From IMG/VR virus record IMGVR_UViG_3300029171_000004: a stretch of DNA of 64,000 bases; one strand, 5' to 3'. The position numbers and the translations under genes were made by a program. Under the pieces are notes generated by a model, which saw nothing but the letters and a program-made list of their open reading frames with translations, had not been told where the DNA came from and ran no database searches. This document shows positions 5,678-26,660 of the stretch, in pieces (position 1 is the stretch's first letter; each line of letters opens with the position of its first letter). The DNA comes from a virus.

Positions 5678-5704
5678 CTAATCAATGATTAACTGAGGAT
5701 TAAA

Positions 5705-8550: not shown

Positions 8551-8734
8551 GCAATATATATTTATTCTAGAAAAATGTAAATACTAAATTTAAAAAATAT
8601 AATTAAAAGGAATTTTCAACTAAGTTCCACTTATGCACTAACGACCAACAAATTAATGAGGGGTTGCTACAAAATATAGCTATCATTTGCTTTCAATTTT
8701 TGTATATTCGTTTTCTCTCACCCTAGATTAATTT

Positions 8735-9031
8735 ATGGAGAAAACTTACAATTTTGGTATTGACATTGTGTATTCTAAATGCAAAGCCGTTCTTGCTAAA
8801 CTTGAAATGAAAATCGAGTCAGTGAATAGAACAACAGGCACAATAAGAGCTTCCACCCCAACATCTCTTTTATCATGGGGTGAAGAAATCACTATTAAAT
8901 TAAAAAAAGTAAGTGAAACAAAAACAAAAGTTTATGTTACCTCTGAAGCAACATCGCAACTAATAAGCTGGGGGAAAAACGAAAATAATGTGTTATCTAT
9001 AATTGAAGAACTTTCAAAACGCCTTAAATGA
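8735..9031 (+). CDS. small hypothetical protein (alpha/beta, DUF1499-like fold possible)
   Basis: 98 aa ORF, TATATTCG element upstream, coupled to next gene by ATGA. Confidence 0.55.
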   Translation: MEKTYNFGIDIVYSKCKAVLAKLEMKIESVNRTTGTIRASTPTSLLSWGEEITIKLKKVSETKTKVYVTSEATSQLISWGKNENNVLSIIEELSKRLK

Positions 9032-9351
9032 AATTATATGTAAATAGTAAGGCAACTGGTAATAAAACTTACCTAAATGTGTACGCCCCAACAAGGAATA
9101 TTCTTAAGCAGAAGCTTGGGAACGAATGGCTAACGATTTATGATGGGTATGTTTATCATGTTTCTGAAGTTTTTGCCGAGGCTGAAATGGAAATACCGAA
9201 AACTGCTTCGGGGGCTGTTATTGGGGGGTTACTCGGATTGTTAGGTGGGCCACTTGGTTTATTATTGGGAGCTGGTTTAGGTGGTGTGATTGGTAATAGT
9301 TCTGACACAGATGAAGTACGAAAAACTAACCATTTTAATAATAGTAAATAA
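9028..9351 (+). CDS. glycine-zipper membrane protein
   Basis: GAVIGGLLGLLGGPLGLLLGAGLGGVIG repeat. Confidence 0.7.
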   Translation: MKLYVNSKATGNKTYLNVYAPTRNILKQKLGNEWLTIYDGYVYHVSEVFAEAEMEIPKTASGAVIGGLLGLLGGPLGLLLGAGLGGVIGNSSDTDEVRKTNHFNNSK

Positions 9352-9917
9352 TGGGAAGTCAAGTCGTTTCTTCAAAAAAATTATCTAGGAAGCGTTTTAT
9401 TCCACTTTTTTGCATGCTAGCTATTGGCGTTATAGGTGTTTGTTGGAAGGACTCAACCATATACTCAATTAAATGTGCCATACAGTTGCTTCAACATCCT
9501 TTTAGACAAGGAATTATTTATTCCATAGGGTTAGTTATTGGTATTTCACACTTTTATTATGTGGGGCTGGATAAGGGTCATCATTTGGGTTTTATGGGTT
9601 TCTCTACTGGGGTATTTAGTTCAATTGCTAACGCCGTTGGATTTTCTTTTATGATGAACAAAGGATTAAGTTTTTCAATCGGAGTGATTGGTGACTCACT
9701 AAAGATAAAACCTTACTTTGTTGATGGAACAGATATAGATTATATCACCCTTTCTCTTGTTTCATTCCTTGTTGTATTTCTATCAGGTTATATGCTATGG
9801 AAGTTAGCAGAAGAATTTCTTTATGAAATTAAGCACCCATCTAGTGATGTAGAGGGGGTTCAGAATCCAAAGGACCAGAAATCTGCTGAAATTCCTGGAG
9901 AACAAGAGTCAAAATAA
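9351..9917 (+). CDS. multi-pass membrane protein
   Basis: Four hydrophobic stretches; TAATG coupling to previous gene. Confidence 0.6.
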   Translation: MGSQVVSSKKLSRKRFIPLFCMLAIGVIGVCWKDSTIYSIKCAIQLLQHPFRQGIIYSIGLVIGISHFYYVGLDKGHHLGFMGFSTGVFSSIANAVGFSFMMNKGLSFSIGVIGDSLKIKPYFVDGTDIDYITLSLVSFLVVFLSGYMLWKLAEEFLYEIKHPSSDVEGVQNPKDQKSAEIPGEQESK

Positions 9918-9924
9918 TATAACA

Positions 9925-11139
9925 ATGTTTATGAATGATTACCCAAGACTTCTTGAAGAATTTTGTAGGGAAGGGAATCTTCATAATTACAGATTTTCTC
10001 TCGTTAAAATTTTTGCAGCTATTGATCTTAATCCTTGTAAGATATCATGTCAGTACATTTCCCCTGCTTCCAGCATCACCTTTCTCCCAGAGGGCCCAAT
10101 TATTCGTGTTGCAATTAAAGGCCGCAAAAATCCATTACATATCATTTGGGATTTGTTGCATGAGTATGGGCATTTTGTGATTGGTCCCAATGAAACCAAT
10201 GACAAAAACAAGATGGCTGTTAACGAATACCATGCTTGGAAATTCGTGTCAAAGATGATGGCTCGGCTTCCTGAATTGGACCGTTATAAAATAGAATACG
10301 AGCAATATAAACAAGAATGCTTGTCAACTTATATTGAAAAACTCCAGTTAAATTACGATGTCGAAGCCATATTAAAAAAATATATGCCAAGTATCATTGA
10401 ACTGTTAGGAGGTCAAAGCATTTCATGGACTTCTATCAATAAGGGACTTACACAGCATATTTCTGAAATCCGTAAAGAGTTTTATGCCACTGGGAAATTA
10501 ATTTTAAAGGAGACAAGTTTTTATTCGATGATTGCTGAAAGGTTTACAGGAACTGGAAAATCAAATGCGATGTTTGACTACTACGATACATTGTTTAAGA
10601 AACTTAATACCAAACTAACATCAGAAGAAAAGCAGCCAGTTAGGCGAATTATATTGCAACTTCTCACTAATCTTAATAATAATCACATGAATTTCATTGG
10701 TGAACTGTCCGTGCTCGATAAATACATTTCCACTGGGCAATATTACTTTGTCAACATAGAAGCAAGAATCTCTTCTGATAGTAATGTTACGGCAGATATT
10801 TATTTAAAGCGTAAATTAGATGGTAGTGATTTTCTGGTTGAAGTACTCAATTTGCATTTGGAAAAAACGCAAATCAATGACTATTCAAAATTTAAATATC
10901 ACTTGGACTCAAAATTTACCCAAAAAATCAAGAGTAAGGGTATTTCCGATAAACGTGAAGTGAAAATACAGCCTGTGCTTTGGTATACGGACCACAATCA
11001 ATTTAAATGGGTTCAGGACTTTTTTTTAAAAACAGATTATGTGCATCCAGATGTACTTGACCCAATGTGCTATTGTAGTTACTTTAAGCATGATGGCTCT
11101 TATCAGCATTGGTTTGATCGTATCAAATTTATTAAATAA
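9925..11139 (+). CDS. HExxH (IrrE/ImmA-like) metallopeptidase fused to possible nuclease-like domain
   Basis: DLLHEYGH plus downstream NEYHAW; C-terminal ADIYL...FLVEV. Confidence 0.5.
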   Translation: MFMNDYPRLLEEFCREGNLHNYRFSLVKIFAAIDLNPCKISCQYISPASSITFLPEGPIIRVAIKGRKNPLHIIWDLLHEYGHFVIGPNETNDKNKMAVNEYHAWKFVSKMMARLPELDRYKIEYEQYKQECLSTYIEKLQLNYDVEAILKKYMPSIIELLGGQSISWTSINKGLTQHISEIRKEFYATGKLILKETSFYSMIAERFTGTGKSNAMFDYYDTLFKKLNTKLTSEEKQPVRRIILQLLTNLNNNHMNFIGELSVLDKYISTGQYYFVNIEARISSDSNVTADIYLKRKLDGSDFLVEVLNLHLEKTQINDYSKFKYHLDSKFTQKIKSKGISDKREVKIQPVLWYTDHNQFKWVQDFFLKTDYVHPDVLDPMCYCSYFKHDGSYQHWFDRIKFIK

Positions 11140-11153
11140 CAAAAAAATAATTT

Positions 11154-11636
11154 ATGTCACTGAAACCATTTCATTATCACTGTAGGGAAACAGTAAGTTT
11201 TGAGTACTTTAATGAAAATCGACCATGCTCTCCTGAAATAGTTGCAGAAGCTTTGCGTAAAATATATGAGGACTACTCAGATTATTATGTTTATCTGGGA
11301 ATCACGGAAAATCCGTGTGGAAGGTTCTCTGGTAATTACATGGTCAATGCTTTGCCGTTTGATATTAGACTTGAAGTACCAATAAGTCTTTATGATGCCA
11401 TTATGCTCGATGAAAGGTCTCATAGCGAAGATTACGAAAAAATGTTTGTAATCTGCTATGCAGAAAATGAAAAAGATATTCGGGATATGGAAGCTAAAGC
11501 AATCAAGTCGGGAGAGGGTATTGACTCTGACAGAACACTAAATTTAACTCTTGGTAGAAATGGTAATGTAAAACCAGGTCGGAATTTTTACTTCTTGTAT
11601 GCATGTATTACTTTAACTATTCCTCTTGAAGATTAG
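11154..11636 (+). CDS. GIY-YIG-like protein
   Basis: YYVYLGITENPCGRF and later conserved E (DMEAKAI). Confidence 0.45.
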   Translation: MSLKPFHYHCRETVSFEYFNENRPCSPEIVAEALRKIYEDYSDYYVYLGITENPCGRFSGNYMVNALPFDIRLEVPISLYDAIMLDERSHSEDYEKMFVICYAENEKDIRDMEAKAIKSGEGIDSDRTLNLTLGRNGNVKPGRNFYFLYACITLTIPLED

Positions 11637-11902
11637 GCGTAAGAGCGAAAAAGCTGCCAAGAATATTTATACATTCTTAGATTAACTTTTGGATAAGACT
11701 TTTTAATGTGTTCAAAATACTCTTTTGCTTTTTTAAGCGTGCTAAAATCATAATTTATTCTCAAAAATGATCGACTCTCTTCATCTATTACTTGTCCATA
11801 GACCCTATAAACATTAGTAATCGCAGGCTTCCTATAACACTTGTCTTCACCATTGAAAGTAAAATGGGCGTTTTCCTTATGATAGAATATTTCCTCTTCC
11901 AT
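11633..11902 (-). CDS. hypothetical phage-type protein
   Basis: 89 aa ORF with TATTTATTA motif upstream (11941-11949). Confidence 0.55.
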   Translation of the reverse strand: MEEEIFYHKENAHFTFNGEDKCYRKPAITNVYRVYGQVIDEESRSFLRINYDFSTLKKAKEYFEHIKKSYPKVNLRMYKYSWQLFRSYA

Positions 11903-12198
11903 GTTGCTCTTTTTAATAATAATAACCTTAGTCTGGGGGATAATAAATAGTTATGTTGATTATCTAAAAATTTTTATATACTGATAATCACAATGTTACG
12001 AGTGAAATTTGAGTATAAATGAAACCTTTACAACGAATATGTTGTATAAGAGTCTGTAAATGGGTTAATACCCTGTTTTACATCCCCCAAACAACCAAAC
12101 TCGCCCTGGCACTTGGCGTGAGTTCAAACGATAACAATTTTATTAACAAAAAGTTCGTCTTAAATGATGAACCGTGTTTAAAACAAAAATTATATGTC

Positions 12199-13161
12199 AT
12201 GAAAACAAATGTCAAATTAAAATGTTGGAGTTGTGGGGCCGAAATCGGCAAACAACTTGTTACTCAGTTCGAAAAATCAATAAGAGCAGATCTTGAACAA
12301 GAACTAACCAAAAAACAATCAGAACTCAACAAACAAAAAGGTGAATACAAAAAATTAACCTTGCAACTGGCTAAAGAAAAAGAACAGTTCGAACAGCGAA
12401 CAAATCTTAAAGTTAAAGAGCGGGAAAAGGTCATCGAGGATCTTAAGAAGAAACTTGACGAAGCCCGTAAACGAGCAGATACAGCCTTTACAAGCCAGCA
12501 GCTTGCTGGTGAAATACAGGAACTTACTCTTGAAAATACGTTAAGAGAACTGTACCCAGAAGATGAAATCATTCCTGTTCCTAAAGGGAAAATGGGTGCC
12601 GATTGTATTCAGGTTATCAATGTAAACGGTAAACCAATAGGTAAAGTAATTTACGAAAGCAAAAGGACAGCTTCGTTTTCATCCACCTGGATATCAAAAC
12701 TGAAAGAAGATAACTTAACGGCCAAGGCAGACATCTCCGTAATCGTCACAACAGCTTTTCCAAAGGGAATAAAAGGTCCATTTGCGATTATTGACAATAC
12801 ATGGATATGTGCTCCAGAAGCCATCAAAGATCTTTCGCTGGTATTGAGGTATGGGCTGCTTAAATTGCAAGCGCTGGCCATAACCCAGAAAAGCAAAGAC
12901 ACGAATATGGAACTCCTTTACAGGTTTCTAACCAGTGAGGAATTCAAAAATATCTTTACATCAATTCTCAGCAGTCTCCAGGGATTGCAAGAGAGTCATA
13001 GTTCCGAGAAAGTACGGATTCAGCGCATGTGGGCTGAACGAGAAAAAATTCTTGAATTACTTTTATCACAAGCGGTCTCCTTTTATGGTAACATAAGAGC
13101 AATTGCAGGAGTAGCAATACCTGAGATCCAAACTTTGGAAGCCCTCCCAAAGGCTAGTTAA
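12199..13161 (+). CDS. DUF2130-family coiled-coil protein
   Basis: CxxC, coiled coil, SQQLAGEIQELTLE, GKMGADCIQ, IYESKRTASFS motifs; ATG 12199 preferred. Confidence 0.8.
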   Translation: MKTNVKLKCWSCGAEIGKQLVTQFEKSIRADLEQELTKKQSELNKQKGEYKKLTLQLAKEKEQFEQRTNLKVKEREKVIEDLKKKLDEARKRADTAFTSQQLAGEIQELTLENTLRELYPEDEIIPVPKGKMGADCIQVINVNGKPIGKVIYESKRTASFSSTWISKLKEDNLTAKADISVIVTTAFPKGIKGPFAIIDNTWICAPEAIKDLSLVLRYGLLKLQALAITQKSKDTNMELLYRFLTSEEFKNIFTSILSSLQGLQESHSSEKVRIQRMWAEREKILELLLSQAVSFYGNIRAIAGVAIPEIQTLEALPKAS

Positions 13162-13361
13162 TACATTTCATTCTGCAGTACCAAGACGAGGAATCTAATT
13201 GATTCATGGGATTCTCATGTCTTATAGGTCAAAGTAACTTCTGAAATGAGGGGTTTGTTACTCTCATGAGATGTGGTCTGTAAGATGAAGTATTCTTAGA
13301 AGCGATGAATTGCGGGGGCAATGATTCGCTTCCTTGTCGAAGTATTCTTATCTGAATTATT

Positions 13362-13598
13362 ATGAAAGAGAAAAAACTAAAACGAGAAGATTTTGATGCG
13401 TATCTGATGAAATATTATTTCCAATTACTCTTGACACCAGGACTATATGAAAAGACTGGCGAAAAAAACGGAAGAAAATTAAGAAAGGAAATAAACTTCA
13501 GCTTCACAAACACACCAAACAGAAATAATAAAATTGTTTCGAATGATGTATGGAAAACACTCGTGTACCATCACATGAAGCGATACATATACAATTAA
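13362..13598 (+). CDS. hypothetical protein
   Basis: 78 aa ORF, A/T-rich start context. Confidence 0.5.
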   Translation: MKEKKLKREDFDAYLMKYYFQLLLTPGLYEKTGEKNGRKLRKEINFSFTNTPNRNNKIVSNDVWKTLVYHHMKRYIYN

Positions 13599-13620
13599 TA
13601 ACAAACGAAAATAATAAATC

Positions 13621-14076
13621 ATGGAAACTAAAATTTATAATCAACGACTAGTAAAGTATGCCAAACATTTGGCGAAACAAAAAACTCATCCAGAAATGGG
13701 TGAGTACAGTTATGCAATTCTCTGTGACCTCTCTGGTGAAAAGGAAGTTCAATTCGGTGTGTGTTTTCACGCATGGATATTTAATGACCTTCCTTTGCTA
13801 TTTCCAGAACAATGGTATTTCAATGATCATTTGAAAGAGCCATTCTTGATGGGATTGGACGTAGAAGAAGGTTCAATAGCAGGGATTTTTGATTTTTTCG
13901 GATTGAACCCTCAGGAATTTGCTCACTTATTTGATCTTGATGGATCACAGCAACCTCATTTATTTGGGGGAAGCTTTTTAATCGAAGACTCAACTGGAGA
14001 AGATATATCGAAAAACATCTTTCAATTCATTCAGTATAAGGCAGCACTTACACATATTAACCCAAAATCGAACTAA
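13621..14076 (+). CDS. hypothetical protein
   Basis: 151 aa ORF, aaaataataaatcATG context. Confidence 0.65.
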   Translation: METKIYNQRLVKYAKHLAKQKTHPEMGEYSYAILCDLSGEKEVQFGVCFHAWIFNDLPLLFPEQWYFNDHLKEPFLMGLDVEEGSIAGIFDFFGLNPQEFAHLFDLDGSQQPHLFGGSFLIEDSTGEDISKNIFQFIQYKAALTHINPKSN

Positions 14077-14232
14077 GATTTATTGGCGTGAGGAGTGACC
14101 CCTTAGAACTTAAAGTTAGAATTTAACAAATCGGTTAAAATATTCTTTTTCTCTGAATCTCCCTATATACAAGGGGTTTCGGGTATAGTGATAAGTAAAT
14201 ATTCTTTTTTGAAAAGCATCCCACTTAAATAA

Positions 14233-15672
14233 ATGGGAAACAAAGTGAAGGCAACAAGGTCAAATACAAAGATTTCTCCGCACGGAGGAGTGGTTCCGAT
14301 TCTTAAGAAAATTAAGGAATGCGGAATACCTCAGCTTATCCGAAAGTGTCTGGGTAAGCGTGTGGAGCAATCTAAGTATGGCTATGATGACGTATTTATT
14401 GCTTGGGTATTGACCTCACTGTGTGGTGGAACCAGACTCGACCACATATCAAAATTAAAAAAGAAATTATCTATTATTCCTGAATTAAAACTGCCAAGCC
14501 ATGATACTCTAGGAAGAGTTATGAAAAAACTTGCCACTGAAACAACTTCAAAAAGGACACTAAGTAACAGATCAAGTGTGTATAATCAGATAAATGAAAA
14601 CATTCATCTCAACAGAATGTTGGTTAAATCAACCAAGAGCTCCAAAATTCTAAATGAACAAAGATCTTATACCATGCACATTGACGCAACATTCATTTCC
14701 ACTGAATGTCGGGGTGCGGTTAGAAAGAAAAACAAAGATGGTAAAGTCGAAGTTGCTCGCATTGGATTTAATCCGATGATTTGTTTAATCAATGAACTTC
14801 CAATATTCATAAGTATGAGGGATGGATATGCGAATTCCCACTTTGAATTAAACTCCTGTTTGCGAAACAGTTTGATGTTATTAACTGAATCAAAGATAAG
14901 GGTTGGCAGAGTCATTAGTGATGCGGCTGGCTATAACAAAGAAGCTTTCGAGTACCTTCATGGTAAAGACATAAAGTTTCTTGTGAGATTTCCATTTAAT
15001 TCTAGAATGGAAACATTTAAAGCATCTCTTATCAATTGTTCTAACTGGAGGTCAGCTGAAATAAGAACAGCCAATTTTAATTGGCTTTGTGAAGTTGGAG
15101 ACATTCCATATAAAATGCATGACCACTATTCTCTAAATTATACGTCACCGACTTGGCGAGTTGTTGCAATGAGAATACCTATAAATGAATTAAATGAAGA
15201 TACCAAGTTGGTGGCGATAAATAACAAAGAAAGGCTTAAAGTGTTAGCCAATAGAGGAAAATTGAAAGAAGTAGCAAAACCTTATACAGAAGGGAAGTGG
15301 ATTAGTTCAGGTAACTATATGTATAAATTTATTATCACCAATGATTATGATAAACCTGCTGAAGAACTTATCAATGAATTTAATAAACGAGGTTATGCTG
15401 AACGTGTTATTTCGTTTATGAAACAAGATTTTGCGTGGAGACTACCACCATTTATGAACATGAATGAAAACACAGTTTTTATGATTGCTGCAGCTTTAGC
15501 AAATAATATTTTCAGAGGAATGGTTAAGCTCTTTAATCAGTTCATACCACAATTAAAGCTAAGTGCAAGATTGAGAGAATTTCAATTTGTTTTCATTGAC
15601 GTGGCTTGTGCTTATGTGGATAGAACCTATATATTTTATAATACTGATATTGAATATGAACTTTTAATATGA
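14233..15672 (+). mobile_element. IS1380-family DDE transposase
   Basis: ISPHGG, HIDATF, ISDAAGY, RGYAERVISFMKQDF motifs; DDE triad appears intact; no terminal inverted repeats recognised. Confidence 0.8.
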
Positions 15673-15679
15673 AAACATC

Positions 15680-15958
15680 ATGAATGAAAAGGAACTTGTG
15701 ACTGCTTTAATAGCAGATCACTTCAGACATATGAAACTTTTGTCTGGACTCGAAAAGTTGGGGTTCGATACCCTGGACTATTATATTGATATACCTGAAA
15801 CGATTGTTAAGGTAATGGGAATAGCAGATTCTGAAACGCCGCTGTTTCATTACATAAATGCTGTTGAGTTAAAATGTGGGAAGTCGGAAAAGTATCATGA
15901 AGTCGCTGCAGAACTTTATGAAGATCTTGTTTGGATGAGGGAGGAATTAAAAAAATGA
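15680..15958 (+). CDS. hypothetical protein
   Basis: 92 aa ORF 7 nt after the transposase stop. Confidence 0.6.
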   Translation: MNEKELVTALIADHFRHMKLLSGLEKLGFDTLDYYIDIPETIVKVMGIADSETPLFHYINAVELKCGKSEKYHEVAAELYEDLVWMREELKK

Positions 15959-15968
15959 AGAATTAATT

Positions 15969-16241
15969 TTGTTATCTTTGATTATGGACTACAAACATAC
16001 CATTGTTAATGGACATCATGTTATCATTGTTGATTATGTTGGCTTCTCCACAATTGCGGTTAGTGCTGTCTTTAAAGGAGTCTTAACCGAGAAATTTCCA
16101 GACGCAAATGACGAATTTATAATCGGTTATATGGATGATAATGAGACTTATACATTTGAGTCACCTCAGCGTATTATTATTACTCAAGAAGATTTAGATG
16201 CGGTTCCAGACGAAGATTGGGAAATGCTTCGTTGGGGTTAG
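15969..16241 (+). CDS. hypothetical protein
   Basis: Acidic ORF, likely start at internal ATG (MDYKH). Confidence 0.5.
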   Translation: MLSLIMDYKHTIVNGHHVIIVDYVGFSTIAVSAVFKGVLTEKFPDANDEFIIGYMDDNETYTFESPQRIIITQEDLDAVPDEDWEMLRWG

Positions 16242-16245
16242 GGGG

Positions 16246-16554
16246 TTACCCTCTGTCAATTGCTTTTTTACTTGCTCTTATCCTCTCTGAATCCGTTTCT
16301 AAACTATGAATGGTTGAATTAAAACTCGCTTCAGCCAAAGCATAAAGACCCTGAATATAATACTCTCGATTCATGTCGCTTCTTATAATCCAAGATAAAC
16401 CAGTTTCAGGATTATTCTTGATTGTGAAGGTATGAACTCCATTCACTATCATATTGATTTCAGTTGTAGCAGTTATTTTTGATAACATCATTGGTCGTTT
16501 TATTATAAAATACAATAACCATTGCAAAAAATCAATGGTTATTAAATAAAACAA
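16246..16554 (-). CDS. hypothetical protein
   Basis: ORF track; true start probably an internal Met. Confidence 0.4.
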   Translation of the reverse strand: MFYLITIDFLQWLLYFIIKRPMMLSKITATTEINMIVNGVHTFTIKNNPETGLSWIIRSDMNREYYIQGLYALAEASFNSTIHSLETDSERIRASKKAIDRG

Positions 16555-16560
16555 AATGAA

Positions 16561-17037
16561 TTAAGCAGCAGTTTCGTAAAAAAGCTCAAAATCAAATTCT
16601 GGAATATCTGAATAATTGATTTTATTCTTGCTTTTAACCTCAGGTTGGAAATTAACCTGATTATTATCCGCCAACAAAACAAGTCCGTTATCTTTCGGGG
16701 TTTGAATGATAACATGTATCGTGCTCATTGGGTCAAATGAAATGATTGTTCTATTTTTAATGTATTTTTCGTTAAACTGCTTCATAGATAACTTATCTAT
16801 GACTTGATATCCAATCTTATTATTGTATTTATAAACGCAGATTAAGAGTGATTTATCTAATTCTTTTCTAAGAAGTATTTGGTTAAATCGCATAAAACGA
16901 CTTCCTGTATATTCAGGTAACAGATCATGCATGGTATTCATACCATTCACATCCTTTCTAAATATTAGCCGTCCTTTCATAATATTAAAGATACGCAACA
17001 GAAGTATTAAATCATACTGAATCAACAAATTTTGCAA
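16561..17037 (-). CDS. hypothetical protein
   Basis: 158 aa ORF; likely start at MKGRL. Confidence 0.55.
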   Translation of the reverse strand: MQNLLIQYDLILLLRIFNIMKGRLIFRKDVNGMNTMHDLLPEYTGSRFMRFNQILLRKELDKSLLICVYKYNNKIGYQVIDKLSMKQFNEKYIKNRTIISFDPMSTIHVIIQTPKDNGLVLLADNNQVNFQPEVKSKNKINYSDIPEFDFELFYETAA

Positions 17038-17094
17038 ATAAATTGCGCTAAGATGAAGCGATTTGTTATTTAAATAGCTAAAAACCAGTAAATT

Positions 17095-17126
17095 AAAAAG
17101 GGAATCCGTAACTGGATTCCCTTTTT
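17095..17126. terminator. bidirectional intrinsic terminator
   Basis: AAAAAGGGAATCC-gtaact-GGATTCCCTTTTT. Confidence 0.85.
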
Positions 17127-17143
17127 GTTTTCTTTTGCCCTTT

Positions 17144-17185
17144 CCTTAACTTGAGACTTGCGTAATTAAGGCAAATGAGGCCTTT
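17144..17185 (-). repeat. right copy of island-flanking inverted repeat / hairpin element
   Basis: Minus strand reads aaaggcctca-tttg-ccttaattacgcaagtct-caagttaagg. Confidence 0.85.
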
Positions 17186-17191
17186 CTAATT

Positions 17192-17404
17192 TTAAAACAC
17201 GATGATAAACACCCAGCATATGATTGCTACAATAAGCCAACCGTCAGCTCGATATGTTCGTGTTTTTCCACGTAAATTATCTAATAGCTCCTGGGTTGAC
17301 CCTGGATATGTTATGTTCAAATATGTTGCAACAGCAAAAATCAGTGTAGATATGCAACCAAATATCCAAGCCAACACATTTAAAAAAGTCATAAATTTTT
17401 CCAT
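17192..17404 (-). CDS. small two-TM membrane protein
   Basis: MEKFMTFLNVLAWIFG...WLIVAIICWVFIIVF; start reassigned to ATG 17404 directly after nadE stop. Confidence 0.65.
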   Translation of the reverse strand: MEKFMTFLNVLAWIFGCISTLIFAVATYLNITYPGSTQELLDNLRGKTRTYRADGWLIVAIICWVFIIVF

Positions 17405-17406
17405 GA

Positions 17407-18258
17407 TTAACTGTTTTTTGGCAACTGACAAATAGGCGGCATTTCCATTTTGTGAGCATTTGCAGTATGACGTTTCCAATAAATTTTTACAACTTGTGCT
17501 TGGCGTTCAGATAGCATTTCTGGAAAAGACATATTTTCAATTTCAGGTGGTGAATGTTCATCGCAAAAATTCATAGCCCATTCAAGCTCATCATATGTTG
17601 CGCCTATTTGATCTTCATCGGTTCTACCATCATCCCAAAGACCATCTGTTGGACGTGCGTCTAAAATATCTTGGATAATTCCAAGTTCTTTTCCAAGCGC
17701 ATATACTTCTGATTTAAGAAGCTCTCCAATTGGGGAAAGGTCGATTCCACCATCACCGTATTTTGTAAAGAAGCCAACCCCGTAATCCTCCACTTTGTTT
17801 CCAGTACCACAAACAAGAAGCTTGTGAGCACCAGCAATACCATAAAGAGTTACCATTCTAAGACGAGATCTTGTGTTGGCAGATGTAAGAAAAATATCAT
17901 CTGCGCTTATGTTTTCAAAAGCGCCAGCTTTTGTGAGGAGTTCAATTTCTTTATCATAAGCCTCGGTTAAATCAATATCCAAAGATTTTACATTTGGAAA
18001 GTTTGCTTTTAACCACTCAATATGTTTTGAGCCACGATCTGCTTGGTCTGCAGCTTGATGAATTGACATTTTAACAACAAACAATGGCATTCCAGACATT
18101 GCGCATAAAGTTGAACAAACTGCTGAGTCGATTCCGCCAGAAACACCGATAATATATCCTTTTGTTTTTGCTTTAAAGCAATAAGATTGTAGCCAATCTG
18201 CAATGTGATTTTTAATAACACTATAGTTGCGAGATTTGTTTTGCGTTGTTGTTTCCAT
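17407..18258 (-). CDS. nadE: NH3-dependent NAD+ synthetase
   Basis: IGVSGGIDSAV, NTRSRLRM, GTGNKVE, FFTKYGDGG, PTDGLW, DEDQIG motifs; no glutaminase domain. Confidence 0.95.
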   Translation of the reverse strand: METTTQNKSRNYSVIKNHIADWLQSYCFKAKTKGYIIGVSGGIDSAVCSTLCAMSGMPLFVVKMSIHQAADQADRGSKHIEWLKANFPNVKSLDIDLTEAYDKEIELLTKAGAFENISADDIFLTSANTRSRLRMVTLYGIAGAHKLLVCGTGNKVEDYGVGFFTKYGDGGIDLSPIGELLKSEVYALGKELGIIQDILDARPTDGLWDDGRTDEDQIGATYDELEWAMNFCDEHSPPEIENMSFPEMLSERQAQVVKIYWKRHTANAHKMEMPPICQLPKNS

Positions 18259-18259
18259 A

Positions 18260-18862
18260 TTATTTGTATAAATTGTTTGTTTTAATGTGTTCAATTACCG
18301 ACTCTGGTAAAAGATGTTTTAGTGATCCGTTGTTTTTAATTTGCTCCCTAATGAATGTGGAAGATATTTCCAACACAGGAACATTTTGTAGTAAAGTGGT
18401 TTTTTTATCAATCCCCTTTTCTGTACAAACACCCTTGTCGTTTCCACCACGTTCATAAAGAATAAAATCATGATTATCCACAACTTCTTGTGCGTTTCTC
18501 CAAAATGGAATTTTAAAATGCGTGTCTGTTCCACATACGATAGAAAACTTTTTGTTTGGTCTTATTTCTCTTAAGTGTCTAAGTGTGTTGTTTGTAAAGG
18601 ATGGTCTGGGCATTGAAAACTCGATGTTTGATACGTGGAATTTATCGTTGTATTCTGCAGCAATTTTTGTCATTTTCAACCTTTCATTTTCATCAATCAA
18701 AATACCGCTTTTTGCTTTAGCTGGATTCATTGGGGATACAATAAACCAAATACCATCTAGACCACATTTTTCTAACGCCATTTCAGCCATTATTAAGTGA
18801 CCAATATGAATTGGGTTAAATGAACCAAGCAGCAATCCGATATGTTCTTTTTTTTCTAGCAC
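18260..18862 (-). CDS. nadD: nicotinate-nucleotide adenylyltransferase
   Basis: GSFNPIHIGH (HIGH), PSFT, ISST motifs. Confidence 0.92.
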   Translation of the reverse strand: MLEKKEHIGLLLGSFNPIHIGHLIMAEMALEKCGLDGIWFIVSPMNPAKAKSGILIDENERLKMTKIAAEYNDKFHVSNIEFSMPRPSFTNNTLRHLREIRPNKKFSIVCGTDTHFKIPFWRNAQEVVDNHDFILYERGGNDKGVCTEKGIDKKTTLLQNVPVLEISSTFIREQIKNNGSLKHLLPESVIEHIKTNNLYK

Positions 18863-19428
18863 TGCAATAAGTGTGATGCAATAATTGTTTTACCGTCCTT
18901 AATGATATTGTCATGAATCTTGCTCTTAAATTCAAGATGATCCATTTCGACAATATCAATATTTTCATGTTCACCTTCTACACCGCCACCTTTAGTAACC
19001 TTGTGTTCATTACGAACAAAAGCAACAAAGATATGTATTGTTTCACTTGAATATCCTGGGGATGGAAATGTTTCTATGTGTCGATACAACATTCTGTCTG
19101 TGATTTCATACCCCACCTCTTCTCTTACCTCTCTAATTGCTGCTTGTTGTGGGGTTTCGCCAGCATCAATTTTTCCAGCTACTGCTTCCAAAATGTAATC
19201 TTTTATTTTATCCGCAACTGGATATCTGTGTTGGCGTACAAGAATAATTTTTCTTGTTTCTTCGTTAAAAAGTAAAACGGCAACAGCGTCTGGGCGTGTT
19301 AGTTTTAACCTTGTATAGTGAGATATTTCACCTTTAGCATCAGTTTCTTGCATGAATGCTTTGTCGATTTTAAAGTGATCGTCAAAGATTCTCTGTTCTT
19401 TAAGTGTTTCAAGCTTTACTTGGTTCAT
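18856..19428 (-). CDS. Nudix hydrolase, ADP-ribose pyrophosphatase-like
   Basis: Nudix box GKIDAGETPQQAAIREVREEVG, SPGYSSE, EHENI. Confidence 0.85.
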   Translation of the reverse strand: MNQVKLETLKEQRIFDDHFKIDKAFMQETDAKGEISHYTRLKLTRPDAVAVLLFNEETRKIILVRQHRYPVADKIKDYILEAVAGKIDAGETPQQAAIREVREEVGYEITDRMLYRHIETFPSPGYSSETIHIFVAFVRNEHKVTKGGGVEGEHENIDIVEMDHLEFKSKIHDNIIKDGKTIIASHLLQC

Positions 19429-19828
19429 TTTTTTCTTTTTTTAAGTACTCGTATTTATTCCTTACCTCCAGGTCGATTGCTCTTGATTTACCCTCATCTG
19501 TAATTCTTACAAATGTGATTTTTACAGAACAAACCTCGGTTTCGTTGTCATTATAAATTTCATGTCTTTTAGCAACTAATCTAAGTCCAATAGAAGAAGT
19601 TCCGATAGATACCACCTCGCCATATATAGACACAGTGTGATTTTCTTTTACTGGGGCTTTAAACTCAACACATTCCATTTTAACAGTAACCATATCTTTG
19701 GTTCTACAAACCTGTGTTGCTTTTATGGCCGCAGCTTCATCAAGCCAGGACAACATTTTGCCTCCAAACAAATTTCCATGAACTCCAATATCGGAGGTTT
19801 TACAAATATGTTGTGTGATTAATTCCAT
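19409..19828 (-). CDS. hotdog-fold acyl-CoA thioesterase (YciA-like)
   Basis: DIGVHGNLFGGKMLSWLDEAA, FKAPV, VSIGTSSI. Confidence 0.85.
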   Translation of the reverse strand: MELITQHICKTSDIGVHGNLFGGKMLSWLDEAAAIKATQVCRTKDMVTVKMECVEFKAPVKENHTVSIYGEVVSIGTSSIGLRLVAKRHEIYNDNETEVCSVKITFVRITDEGKSRAIDLEVRNKYEYLKKEKNEPSKA

Positions 19829-19830
19829 AC

Positions 19831-20037
19831 TTATGATATCTGATATTGATTACCGAAGATTACCCCTTCTCTGAAAACTCCGTTTAGAATTTTGGTGGTC
19901 TTTTCTACTTCTTGCTCCGTGGTGTTCTCAATAGTTAAAAACATTTCTCCACGATTTTTAATTAAGAACGTCGTGTTTCCTATACGCTCGTAATTATACG
20001 GAGTTATTTCTGAAATATCTGTTATATTACCACTCAT
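19831..20037 (-). CDS. hypothetical protein
   Basis: 68 aa ORF coupled between pncB and thioesterase. Confidence 0.55.
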   Translation of the reverse strand: MSGNITDISEITPYNYERIGNTTFLIKNRGEMFLTIENTTEQEVEKTTKILNGVFREGVIFGNQYQIS

Positions 20038-21278
20038 GCGACAACTGTTTGATTGTTTTCAATTCCGAGTGTTTCTAGACACTTTCTTACCTCATCAGAC
20101 TCACCAGTGTGTTTGCCAATATCATCACTCAATTTAACTGCTGGGATCCATTCATCTGAATCAGGAATTGCTTGAGCTTCCGATAATTTAATGACGATGT
20201 TCAATGGTTTTACACCAACATCATTTGAACAGAATGTTCCGATTCCATAGGTTCTGCGAACACCTTCACCATATTTATCGCACAACTTATGGATTTCCAT
20301 GGCGGTATCAAGATTTAAAGCATTTGTGAATGCAAGAGTTTTTGTACTTGGGTCAATGTTAAACATTTTGTATTTAGCAATTGATTTCTTGATGAATTCT
20401 TCAGGGCTTCCAGAGTCATGACGTTGACCATCAAAAAGCTTAGCATACTTCACATCCAACACTTTGTAGAATTCTGAAGAGGTGTAGGTATCAGTAAGTG
20501 CTATACCGAGCTCGCCCTGGTATACATCCACCCAATGTTCAAGAGCTTTAATATTGGCCATTTTATACCCATAACGTGCAGCCATGAACATAAACCATTC
20601 ATGAGCGTGTGTGCCAAGTGGTTTTAAACCAAGAAGCATTGCTATGTAAACATTTGAAGTGCCTCTCAAAACACGTTTACTATCAAACACTTCGGTAAAA
20701 TCTTTGCAAACCTCAAGTTGATTTTCAAAACTGTAACGTCTTCTCGTGCCGAATTCCATGAGCATCATAGAATTCATAATAAAGAATTTCATCTTATCTT
20801 GATTTCTTTTTTGGCGCTCTTGTCTATCAAATGTTGGGAGGGATCCAGTTTCTTTATAATAAAGTTCACAAATCATTGCCATCAAAGGTACTTCCCAAAG
20901 AACAGTACGATACCAATAGCCCTCAATAGAGACTTCCAAAGTTCCGTCGTTGTGTAAGAACACGCCAACTTCAGATGGGTCAAATCGGTATCCAGATAAA
21001 AAATCGAGATAAACTGGTGTGAGATATCTTCCACACTCTTTTTGTAGAAATTCCTTTTCCCTTTTTTCAAGAGCCAGATTAGCCATTTTAGAAATTTCCT
21101 GGCGTAATTTTATATCAAAACCTCTGGGAAAAATTGTGGTTCCACGATTAATGAATTTATAGCGGACTTTTGCTCTTGGAAACAAGCGGCAAATTGCTTG
21201 TTGCATTGTGATTTTGTATAAATCTGTATCCAGTATGCTTTTGATAATTCCGACTTCTTGTTCCATGTTATTGTTCAT
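20034..21278 (-). CDS. pncB: nicotinate phosphoribosyltransferase
   Basis: SILDTDLYKITMQQA, EFGTRRR, GTSNV, GTHAHEW, LTDT, RHDSG, KLSDDIGK. Confidence 0.93.
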   Translation of the reverse strand: MNNNMEQEVGIIKSILDTDLYKITMQQAICRLFPRAKVRYKFINRGTTIFPRGFDIKLRQEISKMANLALEKREKEFLQKECGRYLTPVYLDFLSGYRFDPSEVGVFLHNDGTLEVSIEGYWYRTVLWEVPLMAMICELYYKETGSLPTFDRQERQKRNQDKMKFFIMNSMMLMEFGTRRRYSFENQLEVCKDFTEVFDSKRVLRGTSNVYIAMLLGLKPLGTHAHEWFMFMAARYGYKMANIKALEHWVDVYQGELGIALTDTYTSSEFYKVLDVKYAKLFDGQRHDSGSPEEFIKKSIAKYKMFNIDPSTKTLAFTNALNLDTAMEIHKLCDKYGEGVRRTYGIGTFCSNDVGVKPLNIVIKLSEAQAIPDSDEWIPAVKLSDDIGKHTGESDEVRKCLETLGIENNQTVVA

Positions 21279-21313
21279 TTATTAACTTATACGCTAAAAT
21301 ACATTAAAAGGTT

Positions 21314-21514
21314 TCAAAAACTAAAATAAAAAACGCATCTCCAAATCCCTATACCTTTATGTTTCATTGTTCTTAATTGTCTCCACATAAGCCAGTGGTT
21401 GTCCATGTGAACATAAACCTTTTTTATTTTTACCCTATACCCAAGCACAAGAACCGCATAAAATGGTTTGTTGTGTGGGCAATCTTCTATTTTAGTCCAT
21501 TTTTTTACCCACAT
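21314..21514 (-). CDS. hypothetical protein
   Basis: 66 aa ORF between co-oriented genes. Confidence 0.4.
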   Translation of the reverse strand: MWVKKWTKIEDCPHNKPFYAVLVLGYRVKIKKVYVHMDNHWLMWRQLRTMKHKGIGIWRCVFYFSF

Positions 21515-21769
21515 TTAATTCCACTTAAACGGGTTTGTTAATTCTACTTCTTTCCAAAAACCCACAAAACCAAACATTAAAATCCCAACTACAAACATAA
21601 TCACCAAAGCTATATAACTCAATGGATTGTATGGGTTTAATCTATAGGCTTTTAAAAAGCCACGACCTAACTTTGGGCTCCTGTCTTTATTTGAAACTTC
21701 TTGTAAGACAAGAAGGAATTTTAGTACTTTTTTAAGCATAAGCAAATATACAAAAAAGAATGAAACCAA
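21515..21769 (-). CDS. small membrane protein
   Basis: RLNPYNPLSY followed by TM segment; likely start MLKKV after TATATTTG at 21743-21750. Confidence 0.55.
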   Translation of the reverse strand: MVSFFFVYLLMLKKVLKFLLVLQEVSNKDRSPKLGRGFLKAYRLNPYNPLSYIALVIMFVVGILMFGFVGFWKEVELTNPFKWN

Positions 21770-21816
21770 ACAGCGTTTTTTGCGTATAACATTAAAATAA
21801 GCTATATTTATTCAAT

Positions 21817-23541
21817 ATGACAAAAGTTTATAAAATATTTCTGGATGATATCAGAGTTCCAACCGATATTTACCCTAAAGACAGCAACGAAGATTGGCTT
21901 ATAGTTAGGAATTTAACTGACTTTAAAAATGCAATTAACAAACTTGGAGCTCCAAGTTTCATTTCATTTGACAACGATTTAGGCGAAAGTAAGGAAGAGG
22001 GGAAAGATGCTGCAAAATGGATTGTCTTTGAAAAGGAGTTGGATATTACAAATACTAACTATATTGTTCATTCTGCAAATTCAAGTGGGGTGAGAGAATA
22101 TGTTTTGGGTACTTTAAACAATTGGAAAAAAGAGCTAAAAAAAAGAAGCACAGAAACAATGAATGAGCAAAATTTAAGACTTAAGGTAAGACAAATTCTT
22201 AGCGAAGCAAATGATGCGCAAAAAAATAAACTTGTTAAGATATTAAATTTTCTAGAATTTAAAAAGGATGTTATTGCTGCGGGTGGAGAAATATACGCTG
22301 TTGGTGGAATTGTTAGAGATGCTGTAATGGGTAAACCAAGCGATGATTTAGATATTGTTGTGCGTGGTGTACCATATGATGCCCTTTTTAAGATTCTTTC
22401 AAAATATGGTAAAGCCACAGATACATCTGTTGTTGATGAAAACGGAAAGAAAGATTTTGGTGCAACAAAGTTTGTGTCACACAATAAAATATTTAACAAG
22501 ATACTAAGTGATGCTGGTTTAAAAAGGGATATTGATGTGATGCTTCCAAGAAAAGACAGTAAGGATCAAAACGCAAAAGGTCACCGTGCCATAAAAAGTG
22601 ATGTGAACCCAATGTACACAATCCATGATGATTTAGATAGAAGGGATATTACAATTAACGCAATTGCCCTAGATTTAAGAGGTAATTTTATTGACAACGG
22701 TTACGCATTGCAAGATATTAAAAATGGTATAATACGTGCCGTTAGCGAGGATGCCTTTATTGAAGATCCACTGAGAATTGTTCGAGCTATAAGGTTTGCG
22801 GCCAGGTTTAATTATAACTGGGATGAAGGTACTTTGAATTTAATCAGAGATAATGTACAAATGCTTGCTGATAAAAACGAACTTCCAAGAGAAAGATTCT
22901 TGATGGAGTTTGAAAAAATGATTGGTAAAAGTGATTTGGGCCGTGCTGTTAAGCTTTTAGTTGACCTTGGGGCATACCGTGCCATATTTGGGATTGACTC
23001 TAAGATTAAAGATTTTAATCATTTTGAGAAGGCTAAAAACATTCCAGAGTTTTGTTATATGCTTTTTGAGTCTGAACCAGCTGATAGAATCATTCAACTT
23101 TCTACTCAAAATATCACTACAAAAACAGAAGATATTAAATACTTGCAAGCTTTGTGTAAATACATTGCTGAAGTAAAAGGTAGAAGTATGGATCATATTT
23201 CACACGTAAACGCTATTGCTACAATTTTCAACATATCATCAGTTATGCTTTTGGAATCATCTTACGTGGATGATAAAGATAGAATTTTAGCCAGGAAGTT
23301 TGCAAACGAGGAATTGCCAAAAACTGTTAATGATATTGGTTTAAGAAAGCAAGAATTTATTGACTTTGTGGTAAATGCAGTTGAAGGTACTGGTGCCAAC
23401 TTTGACGAGAAAAGAGATTTTCCAAAAATGGGCAAAGCTAAAAAGGTTGCTTTGCAAGCTATTTACAAGGGCGAAATAAAAAACAACCCAGAAGAAATTA
23501 AAAATTTCTTGTCAAGACACACCGAAATGTGGATGCAGTAA
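21817..23541 (+). CDS. cyclic-phosphate-processing receiver (cREC)-like domain fused to CCA-adding/poly(A) polymerase-family nucleotidyltransferase
   Basis: N-term IFLDDIR..ISFDNDLG..VHSAN; then VGGIVRD, DDLDI, DLDRRDITINAIA, EDPLRIVRAIRFAARF, ERFLMEFEK. Confidence 0.85.
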   Translation: MTKVYKIFLDDIRVPTDIYPKDSNEDWLIVRNLTDFKNAINKLGAPSFISFDNDLGESKEEGKDAAKWIVFEKELDITNTNYIVHSANSSGVREYVLGTLNNWKKELKKRSTETMNEQNLRLKVRQILSEANDAQKNKLVKILNFLEFKKDVIAAGGEIYAVGGIVRDAVMGKPSDDLDIVVRGVPYDALFKILSKYGKATDTSVVDENGKKDFGATKFVSHNKIFNKILSDAGLKRDIDVMLPRKDSKDQNAKGHRAIKSDVNPMYTIHDDLDRRDITINAIALDLRGNFIDNGYALQDIKNGIIRAVSEDAFIEDPLRIVRAIRFAARFNYNWDEGTLNLIRDNVQMLADKNELPRERFLMEFEKMIGKSDLGRAVKLLVDLGAYRAIFGIDSKIKDFNHFEKAKNIPEFCYMLFESEPADRIIQLSTQNITTKTEDIKYLQALCKYIAEVKGRSMDHISHVNAIATIFNISSVMLLESSYVDDKDRILARKFANEELPKTVNDIGLRKQEFIDFVVNAVEGTGANFDEKRDFPKMGKAKKVALQAIYKGEIKNNPEEIKNFLSRHTEMWMQ

Positions 23542-24930: not shown

Positions 24931-24954
24931 GCCAGTTGAAAAACTGGCTTTTTT
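24931..24954 (+). terminator. intrinsic terminator
   Basis: GCCAGTT-GAAA-AACTGGC-TTTTTT. Confidence 0.8.
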
Positions 24955-24974
24955 GTTCTATTTATAAGTACATT

Positions 24975-26660
24975 ATGAACTGCATACCAAACAGAATAAA
25001 AAAGCGCCTTAAGGAAATTATTTCGCCAGACTCGGTGGATGTTTCTGATGTTTCCAAACTAAAAAATGGTCTAAACGGCAAAATTTGGGACCAAGGTGGA
25101 ATTTTAAAGCCAGAGGTTAGAGAAAAGATGATCCAAATCGGAAAAGAATTTTATAACCTTTTAAAACTTGAATATCCGATTAAGGATATATATTTCACTG
25201 GAAGCTTAGCAAACTACAATTGGACAAATCATAGCGATATAGATATTCATGTAATTTTTGACAAAACAGACGAGGATCCAAGTGAGTTGATTTCTGATTA
25301 TATTGATGCTAGGAAAGAAAATTGGTGGTATAGACACGACATTTCAATATATGGCTTTCCCACAGAATTATTTGCTAAAGAATTTGAAGACATTCATCAA
25401 TCAAAAGCTGTTTATAGCCTCCTACAAAACAGGTGGGTTAAAAAACCTTCTAAGAAAAATATAGTTATTGATTCTGAAGCTATACAGTATAAAGCTGCAG
25501 ATCTAATGAATAGAATTGACGATGTGGAAAAGATGTCAAATGATGAAAAAAGACTTTCTGCTGCAGACAATTTAAAGAAAAAAATTAAACAAATGAGAAA
25601 AGCTTCTTTAGAAGCTGGCGGTGAATATTCAACCGAAAACTTGGTATTTAAAACTCTAAGGAATAATAGGTATATCGAAAAACTAGACAATATTAAAACC
25701 GACTCTTTTGACAATACTATGAGTTTAAACGAATCAAAAACAAGAAACAAAGACGGAAGTCCAAAGTTTGGGTGTCTAATGGTATATTTTGATATTCCAA
25801 ATTGGGATAAAGTAACTGGTAAAATACTTCCAGAAGATGTATATGACGAACCAGGTTTTGGTATAGAAGATGAGCCTCACACAACAGTCTTGTATGGTTT
25901 TCATGATGAGGTACAGCTTGAGGATGTGCAAAAAATTACTAAAAAGATAGCAAAGGGGCCAATTAGCGTTGAAGTTACTGGTGTTGGAGTTTTTTCTGGA
26001 GATAAAATGCCATATGATGTTGTTAAATTTAACGTGGAATCCAAAGAGCTTGAAAGGATGAATGCTGCTGCGAAGAAATTGCCACACACTTCTTCGTTTC
26101 CTAAATATGAAGCACATATGACAATTGCATATGTAAAAAAAGGAGCTGGTGAAAAATATAAAAAAGAATTTGCCCAACCAATTAAGTGCACTGGGTATAA
26201 AATGGTTTTTTCTCTTGCGGATAAAACAAAGTACAATTGGAATTTAATTAAAAAGAATGTGTTAAAAGTTGAGAGAGATATTCCAGGAATTACTTCTGAA
26301 AAAATTGTGATTCTAAAAGACTTTATAAATTTCACATGTGCCAAGCTACAAATGAAAGAGCCAGTAACCGTAGTTATAAAAAGCGGAAGAGATGAATATA
26401 TTTCAACAACAGCAGCTTATTTACCAAATGAAAATGAAAACCATATAAGGTTTGGAGGGAGAGCTCTTGTGGATGTTTGTAGATCTATTGGCCATGAGTT
26501 AGTTCACAATAGACAACGTGAACTTGGTATGTTCAAAAAAGGGGAAGAGGTACAAAATATTGGTGGACCAATAGAAGACCAAGCAAACGCTATTGCTGGA
26601 GTATTAATAAAAGACTTTACTCACAATTATGGATATGACAAATTATATGAATTGGATTAA
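24975..26660 (+). CDS. Pol-beta nucleotidyltransferase + 2H phosphoesterase + HExxH metallopeptidase fusion
   Basis: TGSLANYNW..SDIDIH; PHTTVLYG and AHMTIAY; GHELVH; ATG 24975 after TATTTATA. Confidence 0.75.
   Translation: MNCIPNRIKKRLKEIISPDSVDVSDVSKLKNGLNGKIWDQGGILKPEVREKMIQIGKEFYNLLKLEYPIKDIYFTGSLANYNWTNHSDIDIHVIFDKTDEDPSELISDYIDARKENWWYRHDISIYGFPTELFAKEFEDIHQSKAVYSLLQNRWVKKPSKKNIVIDSEAIQYKAADLMNRIDDVEKMSNDEKRLSAADNLKKKIKQMRKASLEAGGEYSTENLVFKTLRNNRYIEKLDNIKTDSFDNTMSLNESKTRNKDGSPKFGCLMVYFDIPNWDKVTGKILPEDVYDEPGFGIEDEPHTTVLYGFHDEVQLEDVQKITKKIAKGPISVEVTGVGVFSGDKMPYDVVKFNVESKELERMNAAAKKLPHTSSFPKYEAHMTIAYVKKGAGEKYKKEFAQPIKCTGYKMVFSLADKTKYNWNLIKKNVLKVERDIPGITSEKIVILKDFINFTCAKLQMKEPVTVVIKSGRDEYISTTAAYLPNENENHIRFGGRALVDVCRSIGHELVHNRQRELGMFKKGEEVQNIGGPIEDQANAIAGVLIKDFTHNYGYDKLYELD

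Follow-up and report, generated by a model that had tools for sequence, protein, structure and literature searches.

Background

Depletion of nicotinamide adenine dinucleotide (NAD+) is a major strategy of bacteria against phages, and three phage pathways that restore NAD+ have been shown by experiment, none of them via nicotinate: NARP1 (Adps and Namat), NARP2 (Nampt and Nmnat) and NARP3, made of a PnuC-like transporter and a NadR-like enzyme (PMC13464706). Clusters for the Preiss-Handler (deamidated) route are also on record in phages. A 2024 study described 174 'NAD-jumbo phages', some with complete Preiss-Handler clusters, and proposed a counter-defence against NAD+ depletion, pending experiment; in Kuafu_71 pncB, nadD and nadE are clustered, and the hosts of the Kuafu clade are Bacteroidota (PMC11662467). 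A huge phage (5-SewaE) with four nicotinamide-to-NAD+ enzymes had been reported in 2023 (PMC10747093), and the same suggestion was made in 2026 for phage X1 (PMC13384950). Here, I analyse an operon of this kind, encoding PncB, a Nudix hydrolase, NadD and NadE, in the IMG/VR virus record IMGVR_UViG_3300029171_000004, a stretch of 64,000 nucleotides (nt) referred to throughout as the window.

A preliminary description of the window had presented the cluster as a novel, third route of NAD+ reconstitution. That part of it has to be given up, for complete clusters and the counter-defence idea are found in the 2024 paper, the reports of 2023 and 2026 concern phages of the same kind, and the third number is already taken by the PnuC-NadR pathway. 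The operon is a genuine and well-conserved further case of a published cluster type, with a hypothesis that is likewise published; as a discovery, it adds little to what is in print. If phages are rescued by the deamidated route too, NAD+ resynthesis as a counter-defence would be much commoner than is now apparent. Relatives of PncB are encoded in about 400 IMG/VR contigs, and NadE lies nearby in most of the 80 examined. The present locus is a compact 4.1-kb operon suited to testing such a rescue, and its Nudix gene is a recurrent member of PncB clusters of this type (28 of 80 viral loci).

Results and discussion

Enzymes of the operon

Family scores, the best solved homologues, the gap-free gene run, the phage context, the conservation of the cluster and its co-clustering in viruses agree in pointing to a phage-borne Preiss-Handler NAD+ salvage operon, which would belong to the conserved backbone of a probable jumbo phage from freshwater, with a probable Bacteroidota host, a reading in which I have good confidence. 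Identities were assigned by profile searches against Pfam and NCBIfam with curated cut-offs, and by sequence matches to PDB entries. With E-values of the family hidden Markov models (HMM) reaching 1e-125, the assignment of the four enzymes is not due to chance.

PncB, the nicotinate phosphoribosyltransferase (NAPRTase), has 414 amino acids (aa) and is encoded at 20034-21278 on the minus strand, as are all genes of the operon. It scores 390.9 bits with TIGR01514 (cut-off 269.6) and 416.9 bits with NF003704 (cut-off 379), and both the NAPRTase_N (PF17767) and NAPRTase (PF04095) domains are present in a full-length match. All six of its PDB matches at E<=1e-5 are NAPRTases, 2im5 being the best (344.8 bits), and no Nampt or NadV structure, nor any such model at E<=0.01, matched it; the earlier assignment of this phosphoribosyltransferase to PncB rather than to NadV/Nampt is thereby upheld. 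The motifs GTxxHE and FGTRRR are invariant in eight phage sequences, with G222, T223, H226 and E227 unvarying. The histidine of GTxxHE is, I assume, the conserved residue of ATP-coupled (autophosphorylating) enzymes.

NadD, the nicotinate-mononucleotide adenylyltransferase (200 aa, 18260-18862, GTG start), reaches 152.7 bits with TIGR00482 (cut-off 112.5) and 151.7 bits with NF000840, again above the cut-off; its best PDB matches are NadD enzymes, and the motifs GSFNPxHxGH (here GSFNPIHIGH) and ISSTxxR (ISSTFIR) are kept in seven relatives. NadE (283 aa, 17407-18258) matches TIGR00552 with 165.6 bits (cut-off 63.7) and consists of a single PF02540 domain, whose P-loop SGGIDS (GVSGGIDSAV) is conserved in relatives. 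A Pfam scan of the 283-aa protein found no glutaminase domain, and an SGGxDS synthetase of this build should use ammonia. Of its two candidate starts, the ATG at 18258 is more likely than the TTG at 18294, since the relatives align from there.

The Nudix protein (190 aa, 18856-19428) belongs to the YffH/AdpP family (TIGR00052, 95 bits, cut-off 79.6). Its Nudix box, GKIDAGETPQQAAIREVREEVGY, is intact (GX5EX7REUXEEXGU) and is accompanied by an SPGYS(S/T)E motif, both being kept in seven relatives. Its solved relatives are NudK, a GDP-mannose pyrophosphatase and the top match, several ADP-ribose pyrophosphatases and a methanol dehydrogenase activator, which make it a nucleoside diphosphate (NDP)-sugar pyrophosphatase. 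From the operon context, the best guess for its substrate is ADP-ribose. Directly upstream lies the gene of a hotdog-fold protein (139 aa, 19409-19828), a predicted acyl-CoA thioesterase of the YciA/Acot7 type (PF03061, 4HBT, E 7.6e-12; PDB matches 3d6l, E 5e-14, and the YciA HI0827).

Conservation among related phages

The same cluster occurs at the same backbone position, beside a divergent cREC-CCA gene, in six relatives (L001/L009, L172, L173, L169, L012 and L013). All six have the PncB-Nudix-NadD-NadE core, with catalytic motifs intact, and the PncB of L001/L009 is 83% identical to that of the window. The hotdog gene is missing from L169 alone; its motif HGNLFGG..M..LD is kept in six relatives, with a ratio of non-synonymous to synonymous divergence (dN/dS) of ~0.07-0.17. 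Every gene of the operon, including the hotdog, Nudix and membrane-protein genes, has a pairwise dN/dS of ~0.04-0.27, values that are rough because dS is saturated. The operon genes are under purifying selection.

Behind nadE comes an open reading frame (ORF) of 70 aa (17192-17404), predicted to have two membrane helices and kept in L001/L009, L173, L169 and L012. The slot after pncB is variable: it may be empty, or be filled by small ORFs unrelated to one another or by GIY-YIG homing endonucleases. In the window it holds a 68-aa ORF (19831-20037) with no Pfam or NCBIfam match; L001/L009 lack this ORF, and in L173 the slot is occupied by an unrelated one of 56 aa. Free-standing GIY-YIG genes were observed in the slots before and after pncB (L013:11343-12053, L012:11288-12001, L013:9265-9954 and L001:7255-7941), at places taken in the window by two small ORFs or by that of 68 aa. 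In L012 and L013, ORFs of 236 aa separate pncB from the hotdog gene; considered as candidate nicotinamidases, they turned out to be GIY-YIG homing endonucleases.

Some NadE homologues in this family of phages are longer, with 355-365 aa (P0062, P0074 and P0047; L169:8001-9068 and L173:10001-11098). A fusion with the membrane ORF was considered for them; the additional ~75 aa stand at the N terminus and contain the motif ..VRKQxYE(E/D)A...R(D/E)LE.., which is UVR-like by eye only. Another observation concerns L013, where the NAD cluster is followed after ~1.2 kb by the gene of a SLOG-domain protein related to YspA/cpYpsA (16122-16676), from a family with predicted binding of nucleotides derived from NAD or ADP-ribose.

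Operon architecture

Judged by ORF coordinates, the operon is an uninterrupted run of ~4.1 kb on the minus strand (17192-21278), transcribed in the order pncB, 68-aa ORF, hotdog, Nudix, nadD, nadE and 70-aa membrane ORF. The largest intergenic spacing is 2 nt, found between the 68-aa ORF and the hotdog gene and between nadE and the membrane ORF; nadD and nadE are 1 nt apart, and the remaining neighbours overlap, by 4 nt (pncB and the 68-aa ORF), 20 nt (hotdog and Nudix) and 7 nt (Nudix and nadD). Both the HMM scores and these junctions bear out the preliminary description of four enzymes, with their coordinates, in a coupled minus-strand run, which had nevertheless overlooked the thioesterase and the small ORFs. 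The 70-aa membrane ORF is predicted to be co-transcribed with nadE. Further on, a terminator-like palindromic hairpin at 17094-17127 (15-pair stem, T/A runs on both sides, strand unassigned), found in a terminator scan, probably marks the end of the operon.

At the other end, a block directly 5' of pncB (21279-21316, minus strand) reads GAAAC ... TAnnTT(T/A)GCGTATAA ... TAATAA, also written GAAAC ... TTTGCGTATAA. It is kept in six of seven relatives while the flanking DNA diverges, and for this reason is probably a promoter. A match at 21287-21301 (minus strand) has one mismatch to TANNTTTGCGTATAA. With 93 matches versus 105 expected, the window shows no enrichment of TAnnTTTG, the -7 motif of the Bacteroidota type. 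Copies resembling TTTGCGTATAA stand at 21775-21789 (plus strand) and 21287-21301 (minus strand), upstream of the divergent CCA enzyme gene and of pncB, respectively, and may represent a promoter element common to both genes. Two further small minus-strand ORFs lie upstream of pncB, at 21314-21514 (66 aa) and 21515-21769 (84 aa, membrane-like); with 85-86% identity to ORFs of L172, both probably represent real genes.

Assembly in phages

Gene neighbourhoods were counted within 8 kb of PncB in the best 80 viral loci and in the 80 closest cellular loci; counts are given in place of P-values because the viral loci include near-duplicates and are hence not independent. NadE lies near PncB in 57 of the viral and in one of the cellular loci, NadD in 29 versus two, Nudix in 28 versus none, and a PncA-like (nicotinamidase-like) gene in 32 versus six. 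The frequency of NadE in viral as against cellular loci argues for an assembly made in phages, not a captured host operon.

The history of the genes leads in the same direction. In a FastTree phylogeny the window PncB falls within a viral-only group of 25 sequences (support 82), and the viral or cellular label changes seven times over the tree, compared with ~50 times when shuffled. The window NadE is 44-52% identical to NadE of T4-like cyanophages, of pelagiphage HTVC008M and of a 642-kb huge phage, but its identity to NadE of other phages with a PncB is only 27-33%; its history thus differs from that of PncB, the operon being a mosaic put together in phages. Phages with a related NadE, marine T4-like cyanophages and a pelagiphage, include P-TIM68, S-SSM7, Bellamy, Sf-FS3 and HTVC008M, in which NadE stands beside methyltransferase genes and no PncB was found. 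The viral NadE clade may serve several roles.

It could be argued that the region is a piece of bacterial chromosome, or a recently captured host operon with no phage function, for the four enzymes all come from ordinary bacterial housekeeping families, and the closest cellular PncBs, with up to 53% identity, are mostly those of Bacteroidota. That view is very improbable: 77 of the 80 closest cellular pncB loci lack nadD and nadE within 8 kb, with either of them present in the other three, and none has a Nudix or hotdog gene; moreover, the nearest kin of the window NadE in cyanophages, a pelagiphage and a huge phage imply a mosaic cluster, the flanking genes are of phage type, and the related contigs are viral ones from IMG/VR that carry genes for GIY-YIG homing endonucleases. 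On the phage origin of the locus, then, the preliminary description was right.

Phage setting

The window encodes, among others, a helicase, a primase, an SbcCD-like nuclease, thymidylate synthase, MazG and an endolysin; the majority of its remaining ORFs have no Pfam match, and no tRNAs were found in it. Its nearest DNA relatives are IMG/VR viral contigs of 153, 142, 81 and 85 kb, with CheckV completeness of 52, 65, 24 and 25%, respectively, which by arithmetic (kb divided by completeness) gives genomes of ~220-340 kb; L173 stands on a 307-kb contig, and the longest contig carrying the exact NadE of the window measures 67.8 kb. One relative has a tail-sheath-like ORF match, weak and below the cut-off, and Terminase_6N and Terminase_6C were not found in the contigs of the four relatives (24-65% complete). 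Aquatic and freshwater metagenomes of 11 studies contain near-identical DNA. The source is probably a freshwater jumbo phage, and its host is probably a member of Bacteroidota.

Divergent to the NAD operon, a cREC receiver domain is fused to an enzyme of the CCA-adding/poly(A) polymerase type (21817-23541, plus strand). Nearby, at 24936-26660 (plus strand), a nucleotidyltransferase is fused to a 2H phosphoesterase with a weak match to Acb1 (anti-CBASS). Both genes are kept beside the operon in relatives.

On the 3' side of the operon, the DNA of L172, L173, L169 and L009 is homologous to window positions 87-1924. Since these four relatives run straight on into that homologue, window positions 1925-17190 represent a ~15-kb insertion specific to the window phage. 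It starts directly past the operon terminator, the homology of the relatives ending just downstream of the hairpin, and its contents include a transposase-like gene (14233-15672) and a DUF2130 protein.

Proposed pathway and its alternatives

PncB would convert nicotinate and phosphoribosyl pyrophosphate (PRPP), together with ATP, into nicotinate mononucleotide (NaMN), which NadD would adenylylate to nicotinate adenine dinucleotide (NaAD), and the single-domain NadE would turn NaAD and ammonia into NAD+. The co-translated Nudix protein would most likely split ADP-ribose into AMP and ribose-5-phosphate, thereby removing ADP-ribose and feeding PRPP synthesis of the host. In sum, the infected cell would retain a supply of NAD+ without reliance on host gene expression, and one likely benefit would be to offset NAD+ loss, including loss through NADase defences. 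The enzymatic activities are here predicted from family membership and motif conservation, and the substrate of the Nudix protein, the timing of expression and the effect on defence are predictions as well.

Several points weigh against this reading. As the preliminary description had it for the first two, pncA and prs, and likewise a gene for NAD-dependent ligase, were searched for and not found in the window; neither were the three found in the contigs of the four relatives (24-65% complete). The best solved homologue of NadE is a Francisella enzyme with another activity, the top PDB match of the Nudix protein is the GDP-mannose pyrophosphatase NudK, from a family that mixes ADP-ribose pyrophosphatases with NudK, and IMG/VR contigs may contain host DNA. 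None of the RNA runs searched contains the locus, apart from small shares in wastewater libraries. The saturation of dS, the near-duplicates among the viral loci and a PncB tree made with FastTree only, with support of 82 for the viral-only group, belong to the same side of the balance.

Nicotinamidase and PRPP synthase must be supplied by the host or by unseen parts of the genome; in other words, these two steps must be borrowed in the window lineage. A case in point for the complete set is offered by L171 and L174, megaphage-like contigs of ~710 kb whose NadE is 60% identical to that of the window. Within ~13 kb (L171:3933-16814 and L174:6253-18137) they encode PncB, NadD, an isochorismatase-family protein whose sole NCBIfam match is nicotinamidase, NadE, a MutT-like Nudix and a class I Prs (328-336 bits, cut-off 297). 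With the nicotinamidase-like gene and Prs added, a full set leading from nicotinamide and ADP-ribose to NAD+ exists on phage genomes, and with it the logic of the preliminary description. Sinorhizobium phage Phosso has a comparable set. SmpB and PspC are encoded alongside the clusters of L171 and L174, and in L174 also the RNase P protein.

The order of the steps could differ, given that the best solved homologue of NadE is 3fiu (129 bits, the other entries for NH3-dependent NAD synthetases giving at most 88 bits), the nicotinamide mononucleotide (NMN) synthetase of Francisella (PMC12143786). In the Francisella order, PncB would make NaMN, NadE would act as NMN synthetase on it, and the NadD-like enzyme would adenylylate NMN; that PncB has NadE beside it more often than NadD in viral loci (57 versus 29 of 80) would suit such an order, yet tblastn picks up NadD sequences, which are short and divergent, less readily. 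The segment GTGNKVED of NadE aligns to GTDNACEW of 3fiu and presumably resembles short archaeal-type NAD synthetases more than it does the 3fiu segment, and Tyr27 and Gln133 of 3fiu, which presumably block the AMP pocket there, align to Ala and Gly in the window protein. NadD, for its part, scores above the cut-off with TIGR00482, an equivalog of the NaMN type, and the structures that match it best are those of NadDs with a preference for NaMN. On NaAD or NaMN as the substrate of NadE, its sequence motifs are ambiguous; the Francisella order is held to be unlikely here.

More room has to be left for a Nudix protein that is no recycler of ADP-ribose, acting instead on another NDP-sugar (e.g. 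GDP-mannose), trimming NAD(H) or NaAD, or removing NAD caps or signals derived from ADP-ribose, although this too is doubtful. The top match to NudK and the methanol dehydrogenase activator in the same family would be in keeping with it, and phage Nudix proteins have been proposed as degraders of ADP-ribose-derived signals (PMC9503650). Against it speaks that the gene keeps its place in a NAD operon, together with its 20-nt overlap, and has seven homologues. A proline 15-17 residues past the Nudix box and the motif SPGxxxE, presumably hallmarks of ADP-ribose pyrophosphatases, tell in the same sense. There is also a precedent in NadM-Nudix fusions with an ADP-ribose pyrophosphatase Nudix domain, as cited in PMC3376133.

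A possible role in counter-defence

A counter-defence role of the salvage operon is plausible. In its stronger form, the operon would be a dedicated module, a NARP-like deamidated pathway selected for rebuilding NAD+ from both products of SIR2 and TIR NADases, taking nicotinamide through PncA, PncB, NadD and NadE, and ADP-ribose through Nudix, ribose-5-phosphate and Prs to PRPP. NARP1, NARP2 and NARP3 demonstrate that NAD+ resynthesis by phages can defeat NADase defences (10.1101/2024.02.11.579819, PMC13464706). Along the same line, Nudix and PncA-like genes are far commoner near PncB in viral than in cellular loci, L171 and L174 bring PncA-like, PncB, NadD, NadE, Nudix and Prs genes together within ~13 kb, and the neighbours of the window operon, the cREC-CCA enzyme and the nucleotidyltransferase-2H protein with its weak Acb1 match, resemble counter-defence or RNA-repair genes. 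On the other hand, the literature searched yielded no report of a Preiss-Handler cluster tested against a defence system, pncA and prs were not found in the available DNA of the window lineage, the deamidated route is costly, with three ATP-consuming steps plus PRPP, and an argument from gene neighbourhood is guilt by association only. Dedicated counter-defence is a serious possibility, placed somewhat below the point at which I would call it probable.

A more speculative extension, put forward tentatively and with a little less confidence still, is that PncB-Nudix-NadD-NadE could constitute a fourth, deamidated NAD+ reconstitution pathway of jumbo and mega phages against NADase defences, recycling both products: nicotinamide would pass through PncA, of the host here and phage-encoded in L171 and L174, and ADP-ribose through Nudix and Prs to PRPP, while the hotdog and membrane proteins would be accessories and not passengers.

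Comparison with known systems

NARP1 is alike in concept, both ADP-ribose and the pyridine base being re-used. It differs in that ADP-ribose in the window phage would go to AMP and ribose-5-phosphate and not be pyrophosphorylated, and it is not matched: neither the window nor the partial contigs of relatives yielded a Prs-like Adps, and the phosphoribosyltransferase is PncB, scoring as a canonical NAPRTase. NARP3 is likewise a phage NAD+-restoring operon, yet one that imports nicotinamide riboside; neither PnuC nor NadR was found among the window ORFs scanned, the accessory island at 2019-15672 being partly scanned, and the NadR model reached 22.8 bits versus a cut-off of 341.

NARP2, as in NadV/NatV of Vibrio phage KVP40, is closer, since here too a phage phosphoribosyltransferase and an adenylyltransferase lead from pyridine base and PRPP to NAD+. 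Unlike in NARP2, the phosphoribosyltransferase of the window is PncB and the adenylyltransferase is of the NadD type, so that the intermediates would be deamidated, and NadE and a nicotinamidase would be needed. On the NARP2 side, phage adenylyltransferases of the NadM type are fused to a Nudix domain (PMC9503650), whereas the Nudix of the window is a separate gene.

Bacterial Preiss-Handler salvage (PncA-PncB-NadD-NadE) involves the same enzyme families, with catalytic motifs intact; its genes, however, are almost never adjacent in the 80 closest cellular genomes, while those of the window form one translationally coupled phage operon. Among cultured jumbo phages, Sinorhizobium phage Phosso has genes for NadE, PncB, a MutT-like Nudix, NMN adenylyltransferase and a nicotinamidase-like 'hydrolase' within ~6 kb, and in Agrobacterium phage Atu_ph07 PncB lies ~3 kb from an annotated ADP-ribose pyrophosphatase. 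In both, PncB is only 28-29% identical to that of the window, the gene order is another, and the Nudix and adenylyltransferase belong to other subfamilies.

The NAD-jumbo clusters of Kuafu_71 and 5-SewaE come nearest. The window lineage is one of freshwater rather than the gut, and its operon includes, in addition, the YffH/AdpP Nudix, the hotdog thioesterase and the small membrane ORF; PMC11662467 does not contain the word 'Nudix', no discussion of a co-clustered Nudix was found in the literature, and no pncA was seen in the window lineage. Shared features are a phage of jumbo or huge size, as is probable for the window lineage, probable Bacteroidota hosts, pncB-nadD-nadE as a clustered unit and the proposal of autonomous NAD+ supply, which may counter NAD+ depletion. 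As in the NAD-jumbo Preiss-Handler cluster, pncB, nadD and nadE are all encoded and clustered in the window phage.

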